64,000 nt of DNA. Origin: a virus (lineage: Duplodnaviria; Heunggongvirae; Uroviricota; Caudoviricetes). A model generated the notes under the pieces. The model saw only the letters and a list, made by a program, of their open reading frames with translations. It made no database searches and had not been told where the DNA came from. The stretch covers positions 84,390-148,389 of the IMG/VR virus record IMGVR_UViG_3300020718_000007, one strand, 5' to 3'. Position 1 is the stretch's first letter; each line of letters starts with the position of its first letter. A program made the position numbers and the translations under genes. Shown here one piece after another: positions 2,852 to 60,719 of the stretch.

Positions 2852-5470
2852 ATGCCTAAAATTAACTTATTAACCATCCAATCTGGAGATAGTCAGGCAA
2901 CATTGATTGATAAAATTAACTACAATTACGATCAATTATTAACTGCAGGTGGGGGACCACAAGGAATTCAGGGTAGAATTGGAATAACCGGCCCTGTTGG
3001 ACCTCAGGGTGAGATTGGTGTTGCGGGGCCTCAGGGGCAGGAGGGATCAAAGTGGTTTGTTTCTTCGCTTAGTCCAACGGGGGGTAGTCCATTAGGTATT
3101 CCTATTGCGGGTGATTACTGGCTGAGAGATGGGGATAAAGAAATCCTTATATTTGGACCTTCTGGAGCAGGATTGGATTGGGTTGATTCTGGATATAATT
3201 TAAGAGCGGATCAAATCTTTTCTGTTACAGGAAGCAACTGGAATACAACAACATCTAATTTTGATTCAGATGTTGCATATTATAGTCAAAATGATGTAGG
3301 TGATTTTTCTTTACTACTATCTGATTGGGGAATACAAGGAACTGGAACAAATTATGCTGGTGCAACATTATATGGTCTAAACTCAGAAAAGTCTAAATTT
3401 AAAATAGCTACATCATTAACAACAACTTATAGTAACCTTATATCTTTTGGTCGTTCTGATTTGGATAGCTCAAACTATGGGTCCCCGACATTTTCAAATA
3501 CACATAATCCTGTAATAAAATGGTCTACATCTCCTGGTATTGGTGCTACCGCAGGAACACCAAATATATGGGATATTAGATTTTATAATCCTATTGGTAA
3601 TTGGGATATGATAACAACTGGAGGAAATATTGGATTTAATTCTAATGGATTAAATAAAATAGAAACAACAGGTCTAACAGGGGGAACAATAGTTAATTTT
3701 TCATCTGGTGGATATTTTCAGGTTCTTCCTGGAGGATCAACTGGTTCTTCTTCGTCCCCATATTTTGGAGTAAATTCCATCGGAGCTGGTATAAAAACAA
3801 CAGCAGTTGCCAATACATTAGCAGTTAAGGGATCTGCATCATTTGCCCTTAATGATAGTTATAATTCTTTTGGGCTTTCTGGTGGATATGTTGGTGTTGA
3901 AAGGGGATTAAGAATAGCAGCAACCGGAGCAGCAGCTAATAATTTAACAGTAAAAGGTAGTGGATCTATAGGACAAACTGATTCCTATAATTCATTTTCT
4001 ATGCCAGCTGGATATTTTGGAATAGAAAATGGACTTAGAGTTGGTGCAACTGGATTTAATCCTTATGGAATACCGACAGGTACTGGCCCTGGTGCAACTG
4101 GATACTTACTTGGTGCAACAGAAGCTTATACTTATACAGGAGCTACTGGTACTTTTGTAACTCCAATGGCATTAATTTCAGGACAAGGAAACGGAGCAGT
4201 ATTCCAAGCAAGATTAGATAATCCTACTGGGCCCAATGCTATATTGTCTTGGGGTGATTCTACAATCTATCCATTTAATAACCCAATTATAAATAATCTA
4301 TCGCAGGAATATATTTCTTCAACAGGACCGATTCCTGTTGGGACATTCTTTGCTGGATATTATCATGGTGCTGGTAATTCTACTGGTGCAGGAAGTTATA
4401 GTAGCGCTTCTCTTTCTACGCCAGATCCAATTACTCAATTCCAAATCGTTTCTCAATATGGAATTGGAACACATGTTACAACATATGGACAAGGAGATAC
4501 ATTAAATTTATTTTCTAGATTATGGGGTCCCCAAACAACAAGTGCTAAAGTAGTACTCGGAGTAAATGGAATAGGGGTAGTACAGGCATTTCAAACCGGC
4601 GTTAGAATAAATGCTCAAAATTCTACTGTTCCTGATGGGCATACAAATTTAAGTGTAGAAGATGATTATGCTGGTCAAGGTTCATATTTTGGCCCAAGGG
4701 CAACAACAACAGCAGCTTGGCAAACACCAAGTGCATTAACTTATTGGCCTTATGGATGTCAACCAACACCAGCACCGATGGGTACAGTAAATAGGATTAA
4801 AGTTATTGGAAATAGCTCCGGTGACGGAATGAATGGTATAAATATTGCCCAGGAATTTGATAGTACTCCGTCAGGAATAAGTATCGGTGTAGTTGGATGT
4901 TTTGAAGGAAGTACTTCTTCTCCAAAAGCATTAACTATTACTGATTATGACCATTATACCCATATTGGTAATGTATATAGTACAATAACCTGGGATGGTA
5001 AAATGACTCTTGGGAAAAGATCCAATTTGGTAGGTACAACAATTACTAATATCTCCTTTGATTCATCCTTATCATCCTATGGGCCAGATACTGCTTCCTT
5101 GTTTACATATGGGGATATTAGCTGTAATGGTGTTGTTAGATCTGTAGGTGGATTTGCTTCTTCTGGATATTTTTATCCATCAAGTAGGAAATTAAAAGAT
5201 GACATACAGCCATTAACTTTAGGCCTAGATAAATTATTAAAATTAAATCCAGTTAGTTTTAATTGGAAAAAGAACGGAAAGCATGATATTGGTTTTATTG
5301 CAGAAGAAGTATTTGAAATTATTCCAGAGGCTGTATCTATAAATAGTGATGGCGAGGTAGAAGGATATGACCCAGGTAAAATAATTCCATTATTAACAAA
5401 AAGTATACAAGAACTAATATCTCAGGTAGCAGATCTTAGAAAAGAAATTGAAGTACTAAAACAAAAATAA
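2852..5470 (+). CDS. tail fibre/tail spike protein with N-terminal collagen-like Gly-X-Y repeats and C-terminal intramolecular-chaperone (peptidase S74-like) autoprocessing domain
   Basis: Gly-X-Y run GGGPQGIQGRIGITGPVGPQGEIGVAGPQGQEGSK (about nt 2948-3052); C-terminal ~95 aa YPSSRKLKDDIQPL...ISQVADLRKEIEVLKQK matches the Ser-Lys dyad chaperone domain of tail fibres and endosialidases (about nt 5170-5467). Confidence 0.7.
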   Translation: MPKINLLTIQSGDSQATLIDKINYNYDQLLTAGGGPQGIQGRIGITGPVGPQGEIGVAGPQGQEGSKWFVSSLSPTGGSPLGIPIAGDYWLRDGDKEILIFGPSGAGLDWVDSGYNLRADQIFSVTGSNWNTTTSNFDSDVAYYSQNDVGDFSLLLSDWGIQGTGTNYAGATLYGLNSEKSKFKIATSLTTTYSNLISFGRSDLDSSNYGSPTFSNTHNPVIKWSTSPGIGATAGTPNIWDIRFYNPIGNWDMITTGGNIGFNSNGLNKIETTGLTGGTIVNFSSGGYFQVLPGGSTGSSSSPYFGVNSIGAGIKTTAVANTLAVKGSASFALNDSYNSFGLSGGYVGVERGLRIAATGAAANNLTVKGSGSIGQTDSYNSFSMPAGYFGIENGLRVGATGFNPYGIPTGTGPGATGYLLGATEAYTYTGATGTFVTPMALISGQGNGAVFQARLDNPTGPNAILSWGDSTIYPFNNPIINNLSQEYISSTGPIPVGTFFAGYYHGAGNSTGAGSYSSASLSTPDPITQFQIVSQYGIGTHVTTYGQGDTLNLFSRLWGPQTTSAKVVLGVNGIGVVQAFQTGVRINAQNSTVPDGHTNLSVEDDYAGQGSYFGPRATTTAAWQTPSALTYWPYGCQPTPAPMGTVNRIKVIGNSSGDGMNGINIAQEFDSTPSGISIGVVGCFEGSTSSPKALTITDYDHYTHIGNVYSTITWDGKMTLGKRSNLVGTTITNISFDSSLSSYGPDTASLFTYGDISCNGVVRSVGGFASSGYFYPSSRKLKDDIQPLTLGLDKLLKLNPVSFNWKKNGKHDIGFIAEEVFEIIPEAVSINSDGEVEGYDPGKIIPLLTKSIQELISQVADLRKEIEVLKQK

Positions 5471-5757: not shown

Positions 5758-6502
5758 GAGTATAAATCTAGTATTTATTTTAATAGTAATAAGTTTAGGA
5801 TTATTATTCCTAAACTTAAAACAGTGTAACGATAAAAAAGATACTAAATTAAAAAATGAGATCTATCTCTCTAATCTACAGGCTTTAAAAGATACGGTTA
5901 GAATAGAAAAAGATAAAAGAGGGGAAACTGAATTTACTAAACAGGCATTAATAGCAGAAAATGGATCACTAAAAGATCTAAATAAAGGATTAAATGATGA
6001 GGCAAATAAACAAAAGGGTAAAGTAATTTATATAGAAAAAGCTAGCGGAAATATAACTAAAGATACAACTAAACCAATAGGGGGAACAATAAAGGAAATA
6101 AATGATACTACCTATGAAGTTTCTGATAGTCTAATCATTAATTATGATAGTAATAATTATAAGAAATTCTTGGTTATTACAACTATAAAAATAGAAAAGG
6201 ATAGAAATGCAACGATTTTAAAAACAAGATTAGTAAATGATGTAATAGGATTTAATATTGTAACAGGATTACAAGAAGAGGATAAGAAATTAAGGATATT
6301 TTTAAGATCTGATTATCCAGATCTAGCATTTACTAAAATAGATGGTTCTTTAATAGACCCAAAAAAGTCCGAGGCGATAAAATCTTTCTTTCCGAGAAAG
6401 AAATGGGGGATAGGAATACAGGGAGGATATGGTATAAATTCTCAAATAAAGACGGGATTCTATATAGGTTTTGGTATTCAATATAATCTTTGGTCCTGGT
6501 AA
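5750..6502 (+). CDS. hypothetical membrane-anchored protein
   Basis: N-terminal hydrophobic segment INLVFILIVISLGLLFL, Lys-rich middle, aromatic-rich C-terminus (GFYIGFGIQYNLWSW). Confidence 0.4.
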   Translation: MFKSINLVFILIVISLGLLFLNLKQCNDKKDTKLKNEIYLSNLQALKDTVRIEKDKRGETEFTKQALIAENGSLKDLNKGLNDEANKQKGKVIYIEKASGNITKDTTKPIGGTIKEINDTTYEVSDSLIINYDSNNYKKFLVITTIKIEKDRNATILKTRLVNDVIGFNIVTGLQEEDKKLRIFLRSDYPDLAFTKIDGSLIDPKKSEAIKSFFPRKKWGIGIQGGYGINSQIKTGFYIGFGIQYNLWSW

Positions 6503-48212: not shown

Positions 48213-48285
48213 GGTGAGGTAGCTCAGTTGGTAGAGCGCAGCCCTGAAGAGGCTGGCGTCGGGGGTTCGAGTCCCTCCTTCACCA
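48213..48285 (+). tRNA. tRNA-Phe (anticodon GAA)
   Basis: manual cloverleaf: acceptor GGTGAGG/CTTCACC, D arm GCTC-AGTTGGTA-GAGC, anticodon stem CAGCC/GGCTG with loop CTGAAGA, T arm GGGGG-TTCGAGT-CCCTC. Confidence 0.8.
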
Positions 48286-48470: not shown

Positions 48471-49109
48471 ATGCCAAGGGAAAGAAAAGTTTACAAATAT
48501 CATTTTATTTATAAAACTACAAACATTAAGAATGGTAAATTTTATATTGGAATGCACTCCACTGATAACTTAGATGATGGTTATTTAGGAAGTGGAGAAA
48601 AATTAAGAAGTTCTATAAGACATTATGGAAAAGAGAATCATCATAGGGAAATATTAGAATTTTTACCTAATAGGAAAGAATTATCTAATAGAGAAGAGGA
48701 AATAATAAATGAGAAATTTTTGGAAAATCCTCTTTGTTTAAATTTAGCAATTGGAGGCGAAGGATCAGGTGATAGCTTTAATTATGTTAATAGTATCTAT
48801 TGGAAATTACCAGAAAACAAAGAAAGAATTAGCAAATTAGTTAGTGAATTTAATATCAAAAATTGGAATAATTTAGATTCTAATAAAAAGAAGGAGAGAT
48901 TAAAAAATCTTAATTTTTCTAATAAAAGTCATACTAAAGAAGCTAAAGAACAGATAGGTAAGAGTAATTCAATAAAACAAAAAGGAGAGAAAAATTCCCA
49001 ATTTGGTAAAATTTGGATTACTAAAGAAAATGAAGAGAAGAAAATTATCCAATCAGAATTTGAAAATTATTCTAAGATAGGTTGGATAAGAGGAAGAAGG
49101 GGGAGGTAG
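48471..49109 (+). mobile_element. GIY-YIG homing endonuclease gene (copy A) inserted between tRNA genes
   Basis: KYHFIYKTTNIKNGKFYIGMHST...DGYLGSG; the stop codon (49107-49109) lies inside the 5' acceptor/D region of the following tRNA-like gene. Confidence 0.7.
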
Positions 49110-49185
49110 CTCAGTTGGTTAGAGCATGTAATGTTCCGGGATCCTGGACTTACGCCGGTCGCTGGTTCGAGTCCAGCCCTCCCCA
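49100..49185 (+). tRNA. 86-nt tRNA-like gene with canonical acceptor, D and T arms but an 18-nt segment in place of the 7-nt anticodon loop (isotype unassigned)
   Basis: acceptor GGGGAGG/CCTCCCC, D arm GCTC-AGTTGGTTA-GAGC, T arm GCTGG-TTCGAGT-CCAGC; anticodon stem TGTAA/TTACG encloses TGTTCCGGGATCCTGGAC, which folds into a further 4-bp helix with a 9-nt loop; no U33 register available. Confidence 0.4.
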
Positions 49186-49277
49186 CTAGGAAATTGAAGA
49201 TCCAGGTGAGCACTCTTGGTGTGTTTGAAAGAGTAACACAAAGCATGGTTTGCATAATGCGTCAGTTTCCTTAAATC

Positions 49278-49361
49278 GGTAATGTAGCTGAGTTGGTTGC
49301 GAAAGCATATAGCGCTTGGTCTGAAAAACCAGAGACGTCGGTTCGATCCCGATCATTACCA
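49278..49361 (+). tRNA. 84-nt tRNA-like gene with a Phe-type anticodon arm (GAA) and a ~12-nt GNRA-hairpin insertion in the D loop
   Basis: acceptor GGTAATG/CATTACC, anticodon stem TTGGT/ACCAG with loop CTGAAAA, T arm GTCGG-TTCGATC-CCGAT; the D region GCTG-AGTTGGTTGCGAAAGCATA-TAGC contains the mini-hairpin TGC-GAAA-GCA. Confidence 0.4.
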
Positions 49362-49366
49362 CATAT

Positions 49367-49439
49367 TCTCCTTTAGCTCAGTTGGTAGAGTGGAGGCACT
49401 ACAAGCCTTAGGTCGTTGGTTCGAGTCCAGCAGGGAGAA
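49367..49439 (+). tRNA. tRNA with anticodon UAC (Val-like) and noncanonical C33
   Basis: acceptor TCTCCTT/AGGGAGA, anticodon stem GAGGC/GCCTT with loop ACTACAA, T arm GTTGG-TTCGAGT-CCAGC. Confidence 0.5.
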
Positions 49440-49809: not shown

Positions 49810-50466
49810 ATGCCAAGAAAAAAACACGAATATCATTATATTTACAAAACTACAAACATCCTAAATAACCGATATTATATAGGAATGCACTCTACCTCTA
49901 ATTTAGAGGATGGGTATTTAGGATCTGGTAGGAGAATAAGGGATTCAATAAATAAGTATGGTAAAGATAATCATATTAAGGAGATTTTGGAATTTTTACC
50001 AAATAGGAAGTTCTTAACTTTACGGGAGGAAGAAATAGTAAATAATGAATTATTAATTGATCCGTTATGTATGAACCTTAGAATAGGAGGAGATCCAGGA
50101 GCTACTGAATGGACGATAGAACAAAGAATATTGGGAGGTAAAAATGGTGGATTTAATACAGCTAAGAGTGAAAAGGAAAATCCGGTAATAGCTAAAAATC
50201 AATGGAATAATAGGTCTTTAATTATGAAAGAATGCCATCGTTTAGGTAAAATAAAATATGATACTTTTACTGGTAAAAAACATAACGAAGAATCTAAGAA
50301 ATTGATAGGAACTAAAAATTCAAATAAACAAAAAGGAATAAAAAATTCTCAATATGGAACAATTTGGATTAACAAAGATGGTATTGATAAAAAAGTAAAA
50401 AAAGAATACTTCTCTAATTATTTAGAAGAAGGATGGGTAAAAGGAAGAAATAAAAAGGTCTTGTAG
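49810..50466 (+). mobile_element. GIY-YIG homing endonuclease gene (copy B, paralog of 48471-49109)
   Basis: EYHYIYKTTNILNNRYYIGMHST...DGYLGSG; same N-terminal and C-terminal architecture as copy A; its stop codon (50464-50466) lies inside the 5' end of the following tRNA-Asp. Confidence 0.7.
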
Positions 50467-50539: not shown

Positions 50540-50610
50540 GGAGTGTTAGTTTAATTGGCTCGAATACCCTTGCGATCGGGGGAGATGAGGTTCAAGTCCT
50601 CTACATTCCG
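50540..50610 (+). tRNA. tRNA-like element (good acceptor and T arm; D and anticodon arms do not fold canonically; isotype unassigned)
   Basis: acceptor GGAGTGT/ACATTCC, T arm GAGG-TTCAAGT-CCTC; a possible loop TTGCGAT (GCG) lacks a proper stem. Confidence 0.3.
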
Positions 50611-53054: not shown

Positions 53055-53525
53055 ATGTGCTTAAATCCATCTAATAAATATTGTCCTCTTTGTAAAAAAG
53101 ATCTGGATATATCAAATTTCAAAATAAGAAAACAATATGGTAAAAATCATTATAACTCATATTGTAATACTTGTAAGAGAGATAAATTAACCAATTACAA
53201 GAATAATAAAAGATCTACAAAGGAAGGAATTTTATATTACAATTTATCCAATTATAAAAATACAGATAAGAGGAGAGGATTTAACTTTGATTTAGATTTG
53301 AAATTTCTTATTGAACTTTGTAGTAAACCATGTATATATTGCGGGGATACAGAAAAAATAGGAGCGGATAGAATTGATAATAATAAAGGGCACACGAAAG
53401 ATAATGTAGTTCCCTGTTGTTTTAGTTGTAATAAAACTAGATTAGACCTTTATTCATTTGAGGAGATGCTAATTTTAGGAAAGGCAATACGGGAAATTAA
53501 ACTTAGAAGAAGATGTACTACTTAA
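53055..53525 (+). mobile_element. HNH homing endonuclease gene
   Basis: N-terminal CxxC...CxxC Zn ribbon; HNH core CIYCGDTEKIGADRIDNNKGHTKDNVVPCCFSCNK. Confidence 0.65.
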
Positions 53526-54289
53526 TACAAAAAAACACCTGGGGAGAAAGGAACTACGATCGAATGATCGAAGGCCTCGAAAGGTTGGGTATGGGGTACG
53601 AAATCTGTAGATTTATACCTTTCATACACGAAGTTGAATTTGAAACTGACAGAAAGGACATTTGGTGTTTTGGTGCATATTCTATGACCAATACGGCACA
53701 GAAGTACGGATGGACTCCTGGTACTATGGCTAATGAAAATCATGACCTTGAAGTATATGGACCTAAGTATGGAGAGCATATGTTGAACCACGAAGGTATT
53801 TGTATGGAATTTACAGATCCTTTGCCAGATAGCGAAGAGTATGATATGTTTTTTGCTCGTCCAACAAAGGACACTAAAATGTTTTCTGGTCAAGTATTTA
53901 TGAGAGATGCTTGGGATGCTTATGTAGCAAAAACCAAAGCTAATGATACCAGTGCCCTAATCTCTGCCGAAAGTAGGATTTTGATAAGCCCACTGAAAAA
54001 TATCCACCAGGAAATTCGTTGTTGGGTAGTAAATGGAAAGGTAATTACTATTAGTCAATATAAATTAGGCTATAGAGTTACTTATCAAAATTTGGACCAT
54101 GACGAAGAAGCAATGGCATTCGCACAAAAGATGGTTGATATATTTCAACCAGCAAAAGCATTTGTTATTGATATTTGTAGGACAAGTGAAGGAATGAAAG
54201 TCGTAGAAGTTAACTGTATTAATAGTGCAGGATTTTATGATATGAATTTCCAAAAACTGATAATGGCATTGGAAGAAGAATTTAATTAG
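53513..54289 (+). CDS. ATP-grasp-fold protein (phage R2K-like clade?)
   Basis: C-terminal EIRCWVVNGKVITISQY ... AFVIDICRTSEGMKVVEVNCINSAGF fits the ATP-grasp catalytic strands. Confidence 0.4.
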   Translation: MYYLIQKNTWGERNYDRMIEGLERLGMGYEICRFIPFIHEVEFETDRKDIWCFGAYSMTNTAQKYGWTPGTMANENHDLEVYGPKYGEHMLNHEGICMEFTDPLPDSEEYDMFFARPTKDTKMFSGQVFMRDAWDAYVAKTKANDTSALISAESRILISPLKNIHQEIRCWVVNGKVITISQYKLGYRVTYQNLDHDEEAMAFAQKMVDIFQPAKAFVIDICRTSEGMKVVEVNCINSAGFYDMNFQKLIMALEEEFN

Positions 54290-54931: not shown

Positions 54932-55016
54932 ACGGGGATAGCTTAATTGGTAGAGCGGCCTCTCGCAAAGGGGTAGGTGTTTAAGCTGCAGCTTGGTTCG
55001 AATCCGTCTCCCCGTG
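54932..55016 (+). tRNA. 85-nt tRNA-like element (Cys-type loop TCGCAAA with C33; palindromic insert AAGCTGCAGCTT; T stem only 3 bp), possible pseudogene
   Basis: acceptor ACGGGGA/TCCCCGT, D arm GCTT-AATTGGTA-GAGC, anticodon stem GCCTC/GGGGT; T loop TTCGAAT present but poorly paired. Confidence 0.3.
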
Positions 55017-55033
55017 CTATTAAATAAACAAAA

Positions 55034-55507
55034 ATGGAAAACACAACGACTCCTTCAATCAAGGATTTAATTAAAAACAACACTGCATCATTCTCACACA
55101 TGTTGGCAGCACATGACATATTAGTTTACAAATTAAACTATATGGGATTTACGTATGAATTTGGTATTCCTGTTTCCGACCTAGGAGAAGCAACCGTTTC
55201 CCGCGAGGAAAAAGCCATTACTCTTATGAGGTATCTCCGTAAGGCTATGGAAAAAGACCAGCTTACAAAACATACGGCTTGTTTTCCTGGTGGATATGAG
55301 CCTACATCATATGCGATCTATTCACATTATCGTGCAGGTGTTTTATATTACCAAATTAACGAAGATGGAAAGAATTATAGCTTTCCCATTCGTAAGGAGG
55401 ATCTCGCCGAAATAGGAGAAGATAAACTTTACTGGAATGAAAGTAAGGATATACTATCAAATGTTATTAAAAAGGCCAAAGAGGCTAATGAATTCCACCT
55501 ATGTTAA
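55034..55507 (+). CDS. hypothetical protein
   Basis: 157-aa ORF. Confidence 0.35.
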   Translation: MENTTTPSIKDLIKNNTASFSHMLAAHDILVYKLNYMGFTYEFGIPVSDLGEATVSREEKAITLMRYLRKAMEKDQLTKHTACFPGGYEPTSYAIYSHYRAGVLYYQINEDGKNYSFPIRKEDLAEIGEDKLYWNESKDILSNVIKKAKEANEFHLC

Positions 55508-55582: not shown

Positions 55583-56002
55583 ATGTACAATTTATTCTTG
55601 GATGATATTAGAACCCAGCATATGTGTGAATATATGCCAAATGCTTCTTTCTATCGAAAGACTGACTGGGTTATTGTTAGGGATTATCCACAATTTTGTG
55701 AGGTAATTACTAAGAAATGGCACGAAGAAAAAGAATGGCCAGAGGTTGTTTCTTTTGACCATGATCTGGGTGTTAGTCATTACAAAGATTCCTTCATTAC
55801 AGAGGAACAATATGATGAACACTATGTTGGTTTAGAAGAAAAGACTGGTATGGATTGTGCAAAATGGCTGGCAAATTTCTGTATGGAAAATGGATTAGTG
55901 TTACCTCGTTGCATGGTGCATAGTCAAAATACAGTTGGTGCAAAAAATATCCAGAGTTTCTTAGAAAGCTTTATGAGACACCAAACAAGTGAAAAATTAT
56001 AA
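55583..56002 (+). CDS. hypothetical protein with conserved DDxR / DHDLG / TGxDxAKWL / HSxN motif pattern
   Basis: 139-aa ORF; the motif pattern suggests a small enzyme, but I cannot identify the family. Confidence 0.35.
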   Translation: MYNLFLDDIRTQHMCEYMPNASFYRKTDWVIVRDYPQFCEVITKKWHEEKEWPEVVSFDHDLGVSHYKDSFITEEQYDEHYVGLEEKTGMDCAKWLANFCMENGLVLPRCMVHSQNTVGAKNIQSFLESFMRHQTSEKL

Positions 56003-56097: not shown

Positions 56098-57165
56098 ATG
56101 AACTTACGGGAACTAGAAAATAGCGGGCATATAATATTTGAAGGCGTAGTAGGATCTCAGGCTTATGGGATTTCTACTCCTACTTCAGATATTGATACTA
56201 AAGGAGTCTTCATACAACCAATTGAAGATATTCTTGGTTTTGGATATGTGGAGCAAGTAAGTGATGCAAAGAATGATAGGACATTTTTTGAAATTCGTAG
56301 GTTCTTACAATTGTTACAAACAGCTAATCCTACAATGCTTGAACTCCTGAACCTTCCTGATGATTGTATCCGATATAAACATCCAATTATGGATCTTGTA
56401 ATGGTACACAAGGAAAGGTTCATTACAAAAGTTTGCAGGAATAGTTACGGTGGATATGCAGTAGAGCAAATCAAAAAAGCCCGTGGGTTGAATAAGAAGA
56501 TAGTAGAGGTGGGTGAAAAAATACCAGTTCGCAAAACCGTATTAGATTTTTGTTTCACCATAGAAAATTCCAGAAGTATTCCTTTAATGTTATTTTTGGA
56601 TAATAAAGGTTTGGACGTAAATAAATGCGGGCTTGCTAAAATTCCACATGGACATGATTTATACTCTTTATACTATTCAGAAGAACATACTTATAGGGGT
56701 ATTGCAGATGAAGATTCTGACGAGGTTAGATTAACATCTATACCAAAAGGAGAAGTACCGATTGCTAGCTTGAACTTCAACAAGGATGCTTATAGCAAGC
56801 ATTGTAAACAATATAAGGAAGAAGTAGAATGGATTGAAAATCGTAATCCTGCTCGATTTGCAGACAATCTGCTACATGGCAAAGGTTATGATGGTAAAAA
56901 TCTTGCACACTGCCACAGATTACTGGACATGGCTACAGAGATTGGAGAAGGAAAGGGAGTAGTAGTAAGAAGGCCCAACCGAGAACAACTATTAAGCATC
57001 CGTAGGGGTGAATATGATTATGACCAGTTAGTAACAGAAGCAGAGGATAAGATAAAGAGAATGGATGAGATCTTTGAAAAATCGGAGCTTCCGGGTGCAT
57101 TAGATAGGGAATTCGTAGACGAGTTGCTTATCAAAATGAGGAAGCAATATTATGGATTAGGCTAA
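56098..57165 (+). CDS. Pol-beta-superfamily nucleotidyltransferase (NTP_transf_2/Cid1-like GS...SDxD motif)
   Basis: GVVGSQAYGISTPTSDIDTKGV matches the hG[GS]x9-13DhD NTase signature; 355 aa, much larger than MNT antitoxins. Confidence 0.5.
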   Translation: MNLRELENSGHIIFEGVVGSQAYGISTPTSDIDTKGVFIQPIEDILGFGYVEQVSDAKNDRTFFEIRRFLQLLQTANPTMLELLNLPDDCIRYKHPIMDLVMVHKERFITKVCRNSYGGYAVEQIKKARGLNKKIVEVGEKIPVRKTVLDFCFTIENSRSIPLMLFLDNKGLDVNKCGLAKIPHGHDLYSLYYSEEHTYRGIADEDSDEVRLTSIPKGEVPIASLNFNKDAYSKHCKQYKEEVEWIENRNPARFADNLLHGKGYDGKNLAHCHRLLDMATEIGEGKGVVVRRPNREQLLSIRRGEYDYDQLVTEAEDKIKRMDEIFEKSELPGALDREFVDELLIKMRKQYYGLG

Positions 57166-59387: not shown

Positions 59388-60719
59388 ATGTATCAGGCAT
59401 CAGTGCTTAAAATTAAGAATGTAAGAGTACACACAAACGCGGATAAAGTATTATTAGGTACATGTCAGGGGAATCAGGTGGTCGTAGGTCTCGACACAAA
59501 GGAAGACGACTTAGGGGTTTATTTTCCATCTGATGGTGTTTTGAGTGCAGAATTTTGTAAAAATAATAACCTGTACAGGCACCCAGAATTAAATAAAAAT
59601 CCTGACGCTAAACCTGGAATGTTTGATTCCAATGGTAGGGTTCGTGCACAAAAGTTCAGAGGCGAAATATCTGATGGTTTTTTCGTACCATTTAGTTATT
59701 TCAGTTTCTTAAAAAGGAGCGAACAGGAACTTTTGAAAGAAGGTTTTGATTTCGATACTCTTGGTAAAACAGAAATTTGTTCTAAATATATTAACAAGGA
59801 AACTGCAAGAATTCTTAGAGAAACCAAAGCTAAGAAAACCAAAACTGCTAAATCCTCTGTAATGTTTAAGGAGCACTTTGATACCTCTCACTTTGGTGCA
59901 AATGTCCACAAATTTGGTAAGGGACAGTGGTTAATTGAAACCGAAAAGGTTCACGGAACTAGCTTCAGAGTTGGACACGTTCAAACAGACAGAAGGCTTA
60001 AGTGGTATGAAAAGTTCTTAACAACTATGGGTGTTAAGATCGACGCAAAAACTTGGGAATACCTAAATGGTACACGTAGGGTTGTAATAGAAGAAAGTTC
60101 TGGAAAACAATTCCATGATCCTACAATCCGTGAAAAGGCTTTCTTACTTTTCAAAGATAACCTAAGAAAAGGTGAAACTATCTACGGGGAAATTGTAGGA
60201 TTCGAATCAACGGGTGCACATATCATGCCACCAGCGGATACAACCAAAATGAAGGATAAGGCTTTCACTAAACAATATGGTGAAGTTATGGCTTACTCAT
60301 ATGGCTGTGCACCTGCCCAAAGTGATGTCTACGTTTATAGGATTACTTTTACAAACGAAGATGGACATTCTATTGATTATTCATGGGATGACGTTGTTAG
60401 ACGTTGTGCAGAACTTGGGGTTAAAACAGTTCCATTAATCAGAAAAATTACCTTTGAAGAATTAGCATTGAAGGGTATTCTTGAAACAGGAAAAGAAACT
60501 GTTGATGATAGGGATACTCAAGCAGCTTTTGTAAAAATGGTAGAAGAAGATGCTAAAGGAGCATCTGTAATAGATCCACGTCATATTAAGGAAGGTGTGT
60601 GTGTAAGAATTGAAGGTGGATTAAATAACCAGACTTTTAAATTTAAGAGTTTCGAGTTTAAGTTCTTAGAAGGTATTATTAAAGATTCTGGTGTAGTTGA
60701 TATGGAAGAATCAAGTTAA
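59388..60719 (+). CDS. ATP-dependent RNA ligase, Rnl2-like
   Basis: motif I IETEKVHGTSFRVG (KxHGxxF), motif III ETIYGEIVGF, motif IV EGVCVRIEGG, motif V FKFKSFEFK. Confidence 0.6.
   Translation: MYQASVLKIKNVRVHTNADKVLLGTCQGNQVVVGLDTKEDDLGVYFPSDGVLSAEFCKNNNLYRHPELNKNPDAKPGMFDSNGRVRAQKFRGEISDGFFVPFSYFSFLKRSEQELLKEGFDFDTLGKTEICSKYINKETARILRETKAKKTKTAKSSVMFKEHFDTSHFGANVHKFGKGQWLIETEKVHGTSFRVGHVQTDRRLKWYEKFLTTMGVKIDAKTWEYLNGTRRVVIEESSGKQFHDPTIREKAFLLFKDNLRKGETIYGEIVGFESTGAHIMPPADTTKMKDKAFTKQYGEVMAYSYGCAPAQSDVYVYRITFTNEDGHSIDYSWDDVVRRCAELGVKTVPLIRKITFEELALKGILETGKETVDDRDTQAAFVKMVEEDAKGASVIDPRHIKEGVCVRIEGGLNNQTFKFKSFEFKFLEGIIKDSGVVDMEESS

Follow-up and report, generated by a model that had tools for sequence, protein, structure and literature searches.

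Two hairpin-bearing tRNA-family genes in a huge-phage tRNA array, apparently maintained by selection: a tRNA-like RNA with a sealed anticodon arm and a tRNA-Phe(GAA) with a D-loop mini-hairpin

The shape of tRNA is among the most conserved features in biology, and RNAs in which an extra helix or a sealed anticodon loop has been selected depart from it. Here we describe two such candidates from a phage DNA stretch of 64,000 nucleotides (positions 84,390 to 148,389 of IMG/VR record IMGVR_UViG_3300020718_000007; "the window"), namely a tRNA-like gene without anticodon (gene 1) and, close downstream, a tRNA-Phe(GAA) variant with a mini-hairpin in its D loop (gene 2). The closest known systems are the T4 species I and II RNAs, engineered tRNA scaffolds, and the point variants of phage tRNAs that escape nucleases. 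Species I and II of T4/T6 (rnaC, rnaD) resemble the present case as small RNAs within a phage tRNA cluster that contains a segB-type gene, with a precursor shared with tRNAs (PMC2330249). The T6 region has a T-arm-like motif, CCGGGUUCAAGUCCCGG; the species I and II RNAs nevertheless have no full cloverleaf, receive no Rfam tRNA call and show no sequence similarity to our genes, whereas gene 1 is complete but for its anticodon loop. In the engineered tRNA scaffold attributed to Ponchon and Dardel (2007), a cargo hairpin reportedly replaces the anticodon stem-loop, and the product is said to be processed like a tRNA and to resist nucleases. Gene 1 has the same ground plan, in that a closed foreign hairpin is joined to an intact core of acceptor, D and T arms, but the scaffold is artificial while gene 1 is natural, conserved and covarying. 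The third comparison is with T5 tRNA-Lys(UUU) and AriB of the PARIS system, where nuclease-targeted tRNAs, with Lys(UUU) as the prime target, are met by altered phage copies (PMC12409363, PMC10264068); Lys(UUU) is also the main carrier of the D-loop hairpin described below. The known escape variants are point substitutions in the anticodon stem or loop, whereas here a whole hairpin is set into the D loop and any resistance would be putative.

Other RNAs share single traits with the two genes. Class II tRNAs (Leu, Ser and bacterial Tyr) also carry an extra helix on the cloverleaf, but in the variable region and not in the D loop or anticodon loop. In intron-containing tRNAs of archaea, eukaryotes and giant viruses, extra nucleotides of the anticodon or D loop form a helix with their flanks, as in a giant-virus contig met in the same searches (L024) that has a classical 13-nt intron at position 37/38; the present genes differ in lacking a bulge-helix-bulge, in that the loop of gene 1 cannot be recovered, and in belonging to a bacterial virus. 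A tRNA-shaped body that serves processing enzymes without decoding is found in mascRNA, in the gammaherpesvirus vtRNAs, in the tRNA-like domain of tmRNA and in YrlA, but these belong to other lineages and have other topologies, and the best YrlA match at our locus reached 17.4 bits against a threshold of 69 (Rfam). A review of non-canonical tRNAs includes neither an extra D-loop helix nor a sealed anticodon loop (PMC7609411), and no description of D-loop hairpin tRNAs or sealed-anticodon tRNA-like RNAs in phages was found in the literature searched, most subscription journals lying outside its coverage.

An earlier note, made from the letters of the window, had described two tRNA-like genes with hairpin insertions. 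Both were recovered at the same coordinates, on the plus strand, by ARAGORN and by the Rfam tRNA covariance model (RF00005), and, judging from sequence comparison, both are real, are under purifying selection, carry hairpins with covariation support, and follow designs that recur elsewhere.

49100-49185, + strand: gene 1, tRNA-like gene without anticodon, 86 nt (Rfam RF00005, ARAGORN)
49127-49154, + strand: closed extended anticodon arm of gene 1 (RNAfold, RNAalifold, covariation)
49278-49361, + strand: gene 2, tRNA-Phe(GAA) variant, 84 nt (Rfam RF00005, ARAGORN)
49298-49308, + strand: D-loop insertion of gene 2, UGCGAAAGCAU, 11 nt (sequence, Rfam alignment)

Gene 1 aligns with the full length of the Rfam model at 50.2 bits and gene 2 does so at 53.9 bits, both above the gathering score of 29 (E ~1e-8 to 1e-9 for both genes at the scale of the window), and the conserved tertiary nucleotides (U8, A14, G18G19, T54-C56) are readable in both. 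The acceptor stem of gene 1 is fully paired (7/7, GGGGAGG/CCUCCCC) and followed by A73, the D arm is canonical with G18G19, a 4/4 stem and a 9-nt loop, and the T stem is likewise complete (5/5, GCUGG-UUCGAGU-CCAGC); the variable region measures 6 nt and CCA is not encoded. The anticodon arm comprises 24 nt where the model has 13, an excess of 11, and, just as had been read from the letters, an 18-nt segment (TGTTCCGGGATCCTGGAC, 49132-49149) stands in for the 7-nt anticodon loop and offers no U33. A tRNA would normally show here a 7-nt loop marked by U33 and by a purine at position 37; gene 1 does not, and deletion of 11 nt from the segment, with any choice of prefix and suffix, never leaves a 7-nt loop with U33. 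The arm itself had been drawn as a helix of 9 bp with a 9-nt loop, and this has to be revised: RNAfold, RNAalifold and covariation give a proximal stem of 5 bp (49127-49131 with 49150-49154), a pair G49133-C49149 between bulged Us at 49132 and 49134, and a distal stem of 5 bp (49135-49139 with 49144-49148) closed by a GAUC tetraloop (49140-49143), in total ~11 bp, with a core (49135-49148) that is a 14-nt near-palindrome. No other copy or target of the arm sequence occurs in the window at <=3 mismatches, and between 49050 and 49400 Rfam families other than tRNA gave sub-threshold noise only (the YrlA match mentioned above and a fragment of a long non-coding RNA).

Syntenic relatives were reached via homologues of the open reading frame (ORF) at 55034-55507 (87, 80 and 70% identity). 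The syntenic contigs with a tRNA array are L053/L054, L055 (206 kb) and L056 (402 kb), and between them and the window non-coding DNA is 80-88% identical and the homing endonuclease gene (HEG) 77%. Gene 1 has orthologues at L056:4551-4636 and L055:4668-4753, whose 58-nt body is 100% identical to that in the window; decay would have been expected to leave ~10 changes in the body, and none was observed (0/58, window vs L056). All variation among the three orthologues is confined to the 28-nt arm, which shows 8 differences from L056 (20/28 identical) and 11 from L055. Four arm pairs (30:53, 36:49, 37:48 and 39:46) have changed on both sides with pairing kept, compared with 0-1 such two-sided changes in slid controls, and the observed values are reached in 2/500 shuffles. 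RNAalifold, run unguided, returns the same closed arm for the orthologues. Pair 39:46 includes a G-U in the window, and L060, a member of the wider family described below, also has a G-U; such pairs favour a constraint at the RNA level on the plus strand, but they are few. L055 has no endonuclease at the site and still carries gene 1, together with a 92-nt paralogue (4761-4852), and L053 has a 117-nt variant with the same acceptor (6053-6169). As the body is invariant, the closed arm covaries and no anticodon can be recovered, comparison of the sequences supports the view, one of those offered in the earlier note, that gene 1 is a non-decoding tRNA-like RNA, and one under selection.

The cores of the three arms are 14-nt palindromes, TCCGGGATCCTGGA (with one G-U), TTCTGGATCCAGAA and ACCTGCATGCAGGT, and the tetraloops of the orthologues are themselves self-complementary (GAUC, GAUC, CAUG). 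Self-complementary tetraloops are found in five family members (GAUC, GAUC, CAUG, GUAC, CUAG), which hints at RNA dimerisation or at a constraint on the DNA level. Around the palindromic core, the junction U-G-U...C (49132-49134 and 49149 in the window) is invariant in the three orthologues. Its UGU was considered as a motif for tRNA-guanine transglycosylase or colicin E5 and dropped, being conserved in the orthologue trio only and not in the wider family; a diversity-generating retroelement was also dropped, as the changes in the arm are not adenine-specific.

Further relatives of gene 1 were sought in sequence collections with a degenerate pattern, in which the GGGAGG acceptor and its matching 3' strand enclose a standard D arm and a long middle. 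The family is defined by the acceptor GGGGAGG/CCUCCCC, A73, standard D and T arms, and, where the anticodon loop would be, a closed helix of ~10-12 bp that ends in a tetraloop, a combination found in the window, L056, L055, L057, L060, L063 and L067. Its members come from other metagenomes and contigs of metagenome-assembled genomes, where they lie within tRNA arrays. The exact T arm and acceptor of gene 1 are common to L057/L061/L062, L058 and L067, the acceptor alone to L060 and L063. The arms are unrelated in sequence, yet most are closed helices of ~10-12 bp capped by a tetraloop (GUAC, CUAG, UCGC or GCAA), and most have an internal loop where the anticodon loop would be; the exception is L058, which has a poorly structured arm and resembles a suppressor tRNA with anticodon UUA. 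When one common D-arm sequence was searched in IMG/VR, it returned 29 loci with over-long middles, all inside tRNA arrays, and several of these have further capped arms (L035, L042 and L045 among them). The exact 26-nt arm sequence had no match in the IMG/VR scan, and the invariant-body pattern had none in the metagenome collection, which does not contain the identical JGI contigs, although the looser pattern did match there. An all-against-all BLASTP comparison of the ORFs from 28 loci with capped-arm tRNA-like genes found no protein family shared by at least 3 loci.

The scans also brought up tRNAs of other unusual build. Two have bodies that are the same as that of gene 1 or near to it, with extra nucleotides after position 37: L058:680-764 with loop CUUUAAG (UUA) and L057:719-810 with loop CUUCAAG (UCA), suppressor-type tRNAs that may be stop-codon readers with an insert. 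Ile-like tRNAs of 93-97 nt with two tandem anticodon-type arms occur at L019:2708-2800 and in L020, L022, L028, L037 and L040 (contigs of 37-420 kb, most >140 kb); the first loop is CUUAUAC (UAU) and the second CUGAUAA (GAU). In L007, two genes (5008-5090 and 5243-5327) combine a class II body, with a long variable arm and a Leu/Ser-type D arm, with the Lys anticodons CUU and UUU, and these adjoin a relative of the GIY-YIG gene.

Gene 2 has an acceptor GGUAAUG/CAUUACC with A73, a variable loop of 4 nt, one bulged U in the anticodon stem, and an anticodon loop of the normal 7 nt (CUGAAAA, 49321-49327) that presents the anticodon GAA at 49323-49325. The GAA anticodon arm and the D-loop hairpin TGC-GAAA-GCA had both been recognised before and are plainly present. 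The hairpin, UGC-GAAA-GCA at 49298-49307, consists of a 3-bp stem and the GNRA tetraloop GAAA and follows directly on G18-G19-U20. In the Rfam alignment this stretch of the D loop counts 12 nt against a single one in the model, 11 too many, and the D loop as a whole measures 19 nt, outside the canonical range of ~7-11 nt; without 49298-49308 it would be the canonical AGUUGGUA. Gene 2 is identical at 84/84 positions in L053, L055 and L056 and is the best-conserved tRNA of the cluster, the other tRNAs showing 59-100% identity across these contigs and the canonical tRNA-Phe 95-97%. Because this 84/84 identity contrasts with 80-88% in non-coding DNA and 77% in the HEG, gene 2, with its insert included, appears to be under strong purifying selection.

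IMG/VR was then scanned for tRNAs with 5-25 extra nt after AGTTGGT and otherwise normal spacing. We define the class by three traits: a hairpin that immediately follows G18-G19-U20, a Watson-Crick pair that closes its GNRA tetraloop, and a cloverleaf and anticodon loop that are otherwise normal. Gene 2 conforms to this definition (AGUUGGU-UGC[GAAA]GCA-UA). The pattern matched 42 loci, and ~17 distinct tRNAs have a mini-hairpin at the exact site seen in gene 2. Most of these tRNAs lie on contigs longer than 100 kb, the longest measuring 380 kb, and by raw count almost every one has the loop CUUUUAA of Lys(UUU). Their inserts include tccGCAAgg, tccGGAAgg, tccGUAAgg, ugacGAAAguc, ugucGAAAgac, uugcGAAAgc, uugcGUAAgc, uuggaGAAAucc and uuggcGAAAgcc. 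Covariation was assessed on hairpin-centred excerpts of 14 distinct hairpins, since a full-length MAFFT alignment misplaces the hairpins. The loop-proximal pairs 7:12 and 6:13 are formed in 14/14, with C-G, G-C, A-U and U-A all represented at 6:13, and the covariation score of 0.451 compares with a shuffle mean of 0.112 and is reached by 0/500 shuffles. In L096, with an array of 23 tRNAs, the hairpin-bearing gene (65.5 bits, Rfam) is the sole Lys tRNA found by ARAGORN, so that such tRNAs are presumably used in decoding.

The variable region, too, receives an extra helix in these phages and is thereby the third such site in a tRNA. Class I isoacceptors (Pro, Thr, Trp, Gly, Asp, Met) with long variable arms occur in huge-phage arrays (L076:7246-7333, L079:1745-1840 and 4010-4095, L085:2915-3005, L086:4218-4304, L103:9099-9186), and the arms of the Pro and Thr examples have GAAA caps. 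Add-on helices thus seem to be a general habit of these phages.

We favour an explanation in which both genes are functional, selected, non-canonical members of the phage tRNA array, with a role in conflicts over tRNA as the most likely one, and put its probability at about 0.55. That the genes are functional non-canonical RNAs of the tRNA family is highly probable; a specific counter-defence mechanism, argued by analogy, is offered tentatively. Both genes would be transcribed and end-processed like the neighbouring tRNAs. In gene 1, the acceptor/T helix and the D/T elbow are complete and frozen, and a helical cap replaces the anticodon loop, with its pairing but not its sequence kept. Such an RNA could not read codons, and its charging by most synthetases would be improbable. 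Most synthetases for class I-type tRNAs need the anticodon, and the pair G3-C70 of gene 1 rules out the rule used by alanyl-tRNA synthetase. Because the body alone is constrained in sequence, while the arm need only be a closed helix, gene 1 probably acts through its tRNA body, presumably via the acceptor/T/elbow part, which RNase P, RNase Z, the CCA enzyme and many toxins directed at tRNA all read. As a body double, harmless in itself, gene 1 might tie up a tRNA-binding factor while staying out of translation. Gene 2 would be a decoding tRNA-Phe(GAA). Its mini-hairpin sits at position 20/21 of the D loop, which belongs to the variable pocket on the outer corner of the L shape. Positions 20-20b are solvent-exposed at the elbow, where a hairpin should be tolerable and would alter the docking of proteins that read the elbow or D loop; it could protect this tRNA against a defence nuclease of the host that cleaves tRNAs, or label it as belonging to the phage, with no loss of decoding. 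A role in a tRNA arms race is our best guess because RNA-repair genes adjoin the array, because of the preference of the hairpin class for Lys(UUU), a classic nuclease target, and because of published phage tRNA variants. These variants defeat tRNA-cleaving defences, and AriB of PARIS has been proposed to contact the D loop (PMC12409363, PMC10264068). A broader idea, possible but in our view doubtful, is that huge phages make a practice of fitting tRNAs with add-on helices, as a kit against host defences. D-loop and variable-loop hairpins would hide decoding tRNAs ("armoured" tRNAs) from immune nucleases of the host that cleave tRNAs, or identify them as the phage's, and sealed anticodon loops would give decoys that soak up tRNA-binding defence or toxin proteins with translation undisturbed. 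Gene 1 and gene 2 would then be one example of each kind, placed alongside the neighbouring RNA-repair module.

Several points weigh against a conflict-related role or soften the evidence behind it. The function proposed for both genes is drawn from context and analogy, and to our knowledge no nuclease targets tRNA-Phe in such a way that a D-loop hairpin would block it. No protein family co-occurs with capped-arm tRNA-like genes across unrelated loci. The compensatory changes in the arm of gene 1 could stem in part from templated mutation of a quasi-palindrome at the DNA level and not from selection for RNA pairing, and a simple cap does not account for the self-complementary tetraloops (GAUC, GAUC, CAUG). 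As the orthologues of gene 2 are invariant, the covariation of its hairpin comes from non-orthologous Lys tRNAs, and the constraint on the 11-nt insert itself is modest, zero changes being a ~1-in-10 to 1-in-30 event under neutrality.

The alternatives differ in which part of the RNAs they take to be the active one. Gene 1 could be a natural "tRNA scaffold" in which the variable palindromic hairpin does the work, as a protein decoy, as a dimeriser of the RNA, or by imitating a hairpin RNA of the host, for instance a CRISPR repeat. Its architecture is the same as that of the engineered scaffold; the 14-nt cores are perfect or near-perfect palindromes including their loops (GAUC, GAUC, CAUG, with GUAC in L057 and CUAG in L060), for which a plain cap has no need, and the arm varies among close relatives, as might be expected of a payload specific to the host. 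However, the arm changes at an approximately neutral rate with only its pairing kept while the body is frozen, which suggests that the constrained, functional part is the body, ordinary GNRA or UNCG-like caps are found in L042, L067 and L063, and the window holds no second copy or target of the hairpin sequence, so that we consider this version unlikely. It is improbable, too, that the inserts are micro-introns which are excised, with the halves rejoined into ordinary tRNAs, perhaps by the phage RNA ligase. The insertion in gene 2, suggested earlier as either an unusual insertion or a micro-intron, holds up as a stable add-on that recurs in huge phages, but bears little resemblance to a micro-intron; of the two genes, gene 2 is the one for which this reading keeps some small probability. 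With 49298-49308 removed, its D loop would indeed be perfectly canonical, an RNA ligase and proteins of the end-healing type are encoded by the phage, L024 has its classical intron, and the suppressor-like tRNAs of L057 and L058 carry their insert after position 37. Yet none of the three orthologues of gene 1 regains U33 and a purine at 37 by any one excision, and the resulting "anticodons" differ; there is no bulge-helix-bulge (no 3-nt bulges around a 4-bp helix), and 11 nt is far below the size of a group I intron (~200 nt or more). The D loops of the Lys class are still ~13 nt long after removal of the hairpin and have variable flanks, and C-G-closed GNRA loops resemble a stable structure more than splice signals. 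Bacteria, moreover, are not known to possess a tRNA splicing endonuclease.

A role as processing punctuation, in which the tRNA shapes guide RNase P and RNase Z, whose cleavage would set free or disable the flanking endonuclease mRNA and the RNAs next to it, likewise seems improbable as the main function, although it may be a side effect. Both endonuclease ORFs end inside the next tRNA, so that RNase P cleavage would remove the stop codon, and precursor processing has been proposed to limit segB expression (PMC2330249); but any ordinary tRNA would serve this purpose, the sealed arm and the D-loop hairpin are left unexplained, and both genes are unchanged in L055 and L053, which have no HEG upstream. 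Very little speaks for decaying pseudogenes, that is duplicate tRNA genes broken by small palindromic insertions, for example through faulty repair after homing-endonuclease cuts. The cluster does contain duplicate isoacceptors, including a canonical tRNA-Phe(GAA) at 48213, and both inserts are 11 nt with inverted repeats and adjoin homing endonuclease genes. Decay is, however, difficult to reconcile with a gene 1 body identical at 58/58 and a gene 2 identical at 84/84 positions in the face of 12-23% divergence of non-coding DNA, with arm pairing kept by compensatory changes, with the recurrence of both designs in unrelated phages, or with relatives that have no HEG at the site and carry both genes. 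Finally, we can practically dismiss the notion that the two are ordinary class II tRNAs, Gly-UCC and Tyr-AUA, which is what ARAGORN reports. ARAGORN finds both genes, but its labels are mis-parses: the folds have mismatched anticodon and D stems, and three gene 1 orthologues with identical bodies are named Gly(UCC), Glu(UUC) and Tyr(GUA), an inconsistency from which it follows that the parse is wrong. For gene 2, the "variable arm" in the ARAGORN fold holds the textbook anticodon loop CUGAAAA, and Rfam, RNAalifold and the Lys homologues back the other parse. With variable regions of 6 and 4 nt and class II folds that have to be forced, the original statement that neither gene is class II was correct.

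If the conflict-related explanation holds, it bears on a field in which tRNAs are now seen as one of the chief points of contention of phages with bacterial immunity (PrrC, PARIS, retrons, Septu, Schlafen, Cas13, Cas12a3), and add-ons that block or divert such nucleases would be anti-defence devices of a new, RNA-based class. Synthetic biology, too, could draw on them directly when designing tRNAs that are orthogonal or resist nucleases. The mislabelling by ARAGORN (Gly, Glu, Tyr, "???") means that tRNA inventories of huge phages, and arguments on codon usage, are distorted.

The window lies within a 473,921-bp phage contig (ENA ERZ27271905 k141_26427). The region around both genes is 100% identical across six independent assemblies (ENA, JGI, Logan), and an assembly artefact is therefore excluded. 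Among 50,697 phage records, BLAST with the region and with the single genes revealed no close isolate relative; the matches reflect generic tRNA and segB similarity only, and those to Lys tRNAs have no hairpin. Searches for synteny in IMG/VR with exonuclease, RlaP and R2K queries gave loci without tRNAs, or no loci. The further features of the locus are:

48.2-55.0 kb, + strand: tRNA array of 14 genes (ARAGORN, Rfam)
48471-49109, + strand: segB-like GIY-YIG homing endonuclease ORF, 212 aa (Pfam, weak; segB identity)
49186-49277, + strand: spacer between genes 1 and 2, 92 nt (conservation, fold)
53513-54289: R2K ATP-grasp gene, inside the tRNA array
55583-56002: cREC_REC (cyclic-phosphate-processing receiver domain), RNA-repair module directly after the array
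56098-57165: RlaP nucleotidyltransferase, RNA-repair module after the array
59388-60719: RNA ligase, RNA-repair module after the array

Topoisomerase II and a split family B DNA polymerase are encoded upstream of the array, in which duplicate isoacceptors are called by ARAGORN and which is split by two paralogous segB-like GIY-YIG ORFs (48471-49109 and 49810-50466). The first has a Pfam GIY-YIG match with E 6e-4, below the cut-off, and a likewise weak match to SegE, and its DNA is ~71% identical to T-even segB over 164 nt. It begins 46 nt after tRNA-Trp; both ORFs start 46-47 nt past the upstream tRNA, a spacing like that of T6 segB. Both also end within the following tRNA, where their TAG stop codons (49107-49109 and 50464-50466) form U8-A9-G10; for the first ORF this tRNA is gene 1, which is thus placed right after the GIY-YIG gene as had been described, the stop coinciding with tRNA positions 8-10. 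An RNase P cut at the 5' end of the tRNA would strip the stop codon from the endonuclease mRNA, and this arrangement could be a built-in brake on a toxic enzyme. The suggestion that the two genes are targets or decoys of the adjacent endonucleases finds no support, on two grounds. The characterised relative SegB recognises an element in the T arm (GGTTCRANTCC) and cleaves at the tRNA 3' end (PMC2330249), and both genes are present in L055 and L053 without an endonuclease at that place. The T arm of gene 1 is still perfect (GGTTCGAGTCC), and the inserts of both genes, in the anticodon arm and the D loop, lie outside a SegB-type site.

The spacer that separates genes 1 and 2 matches L056 at 91/92 positions, compared with an identity of 80-88% for other intergenic DNA and 77% for the HEG, and folds into a closed multi-hairpin structure (z-score -2.05). 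It is absent from L053 and L055, and the same slot in L055 holds the 92-nt tRNA-like paralogue. The spacer may be a further, undescribed small RNA.

An alanyl-tRNA synthetase fragment (PF01411, 243-249 aa) lies inside the arrays of the relatives (L053:7853-8584, L055:6752-7483, L056:7175-7924), and L053 and L055 also have a tRNA-Ala(UGC); the window has neither at the corresponding place, ~51.6-52.6 kb. Within the array of the window, three further tRNAs have no U33. One, at 50540-50610, has the loop UGCGAUC ("Ser-CGA") and scores 31.7 bits. The second, at 49367-49439, has the loop ACUACAA ("Val-UAC") and is 99-100% identical in L053 and L056, and the third, at 54932-55016, has the loop UCGCAAA ("Cys-GCA") in an 86-nt gene of class II shape that is 98% identical in L055. 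From their sequences, the tRNAs at 49367 and 54932 look selected rather than decayed.

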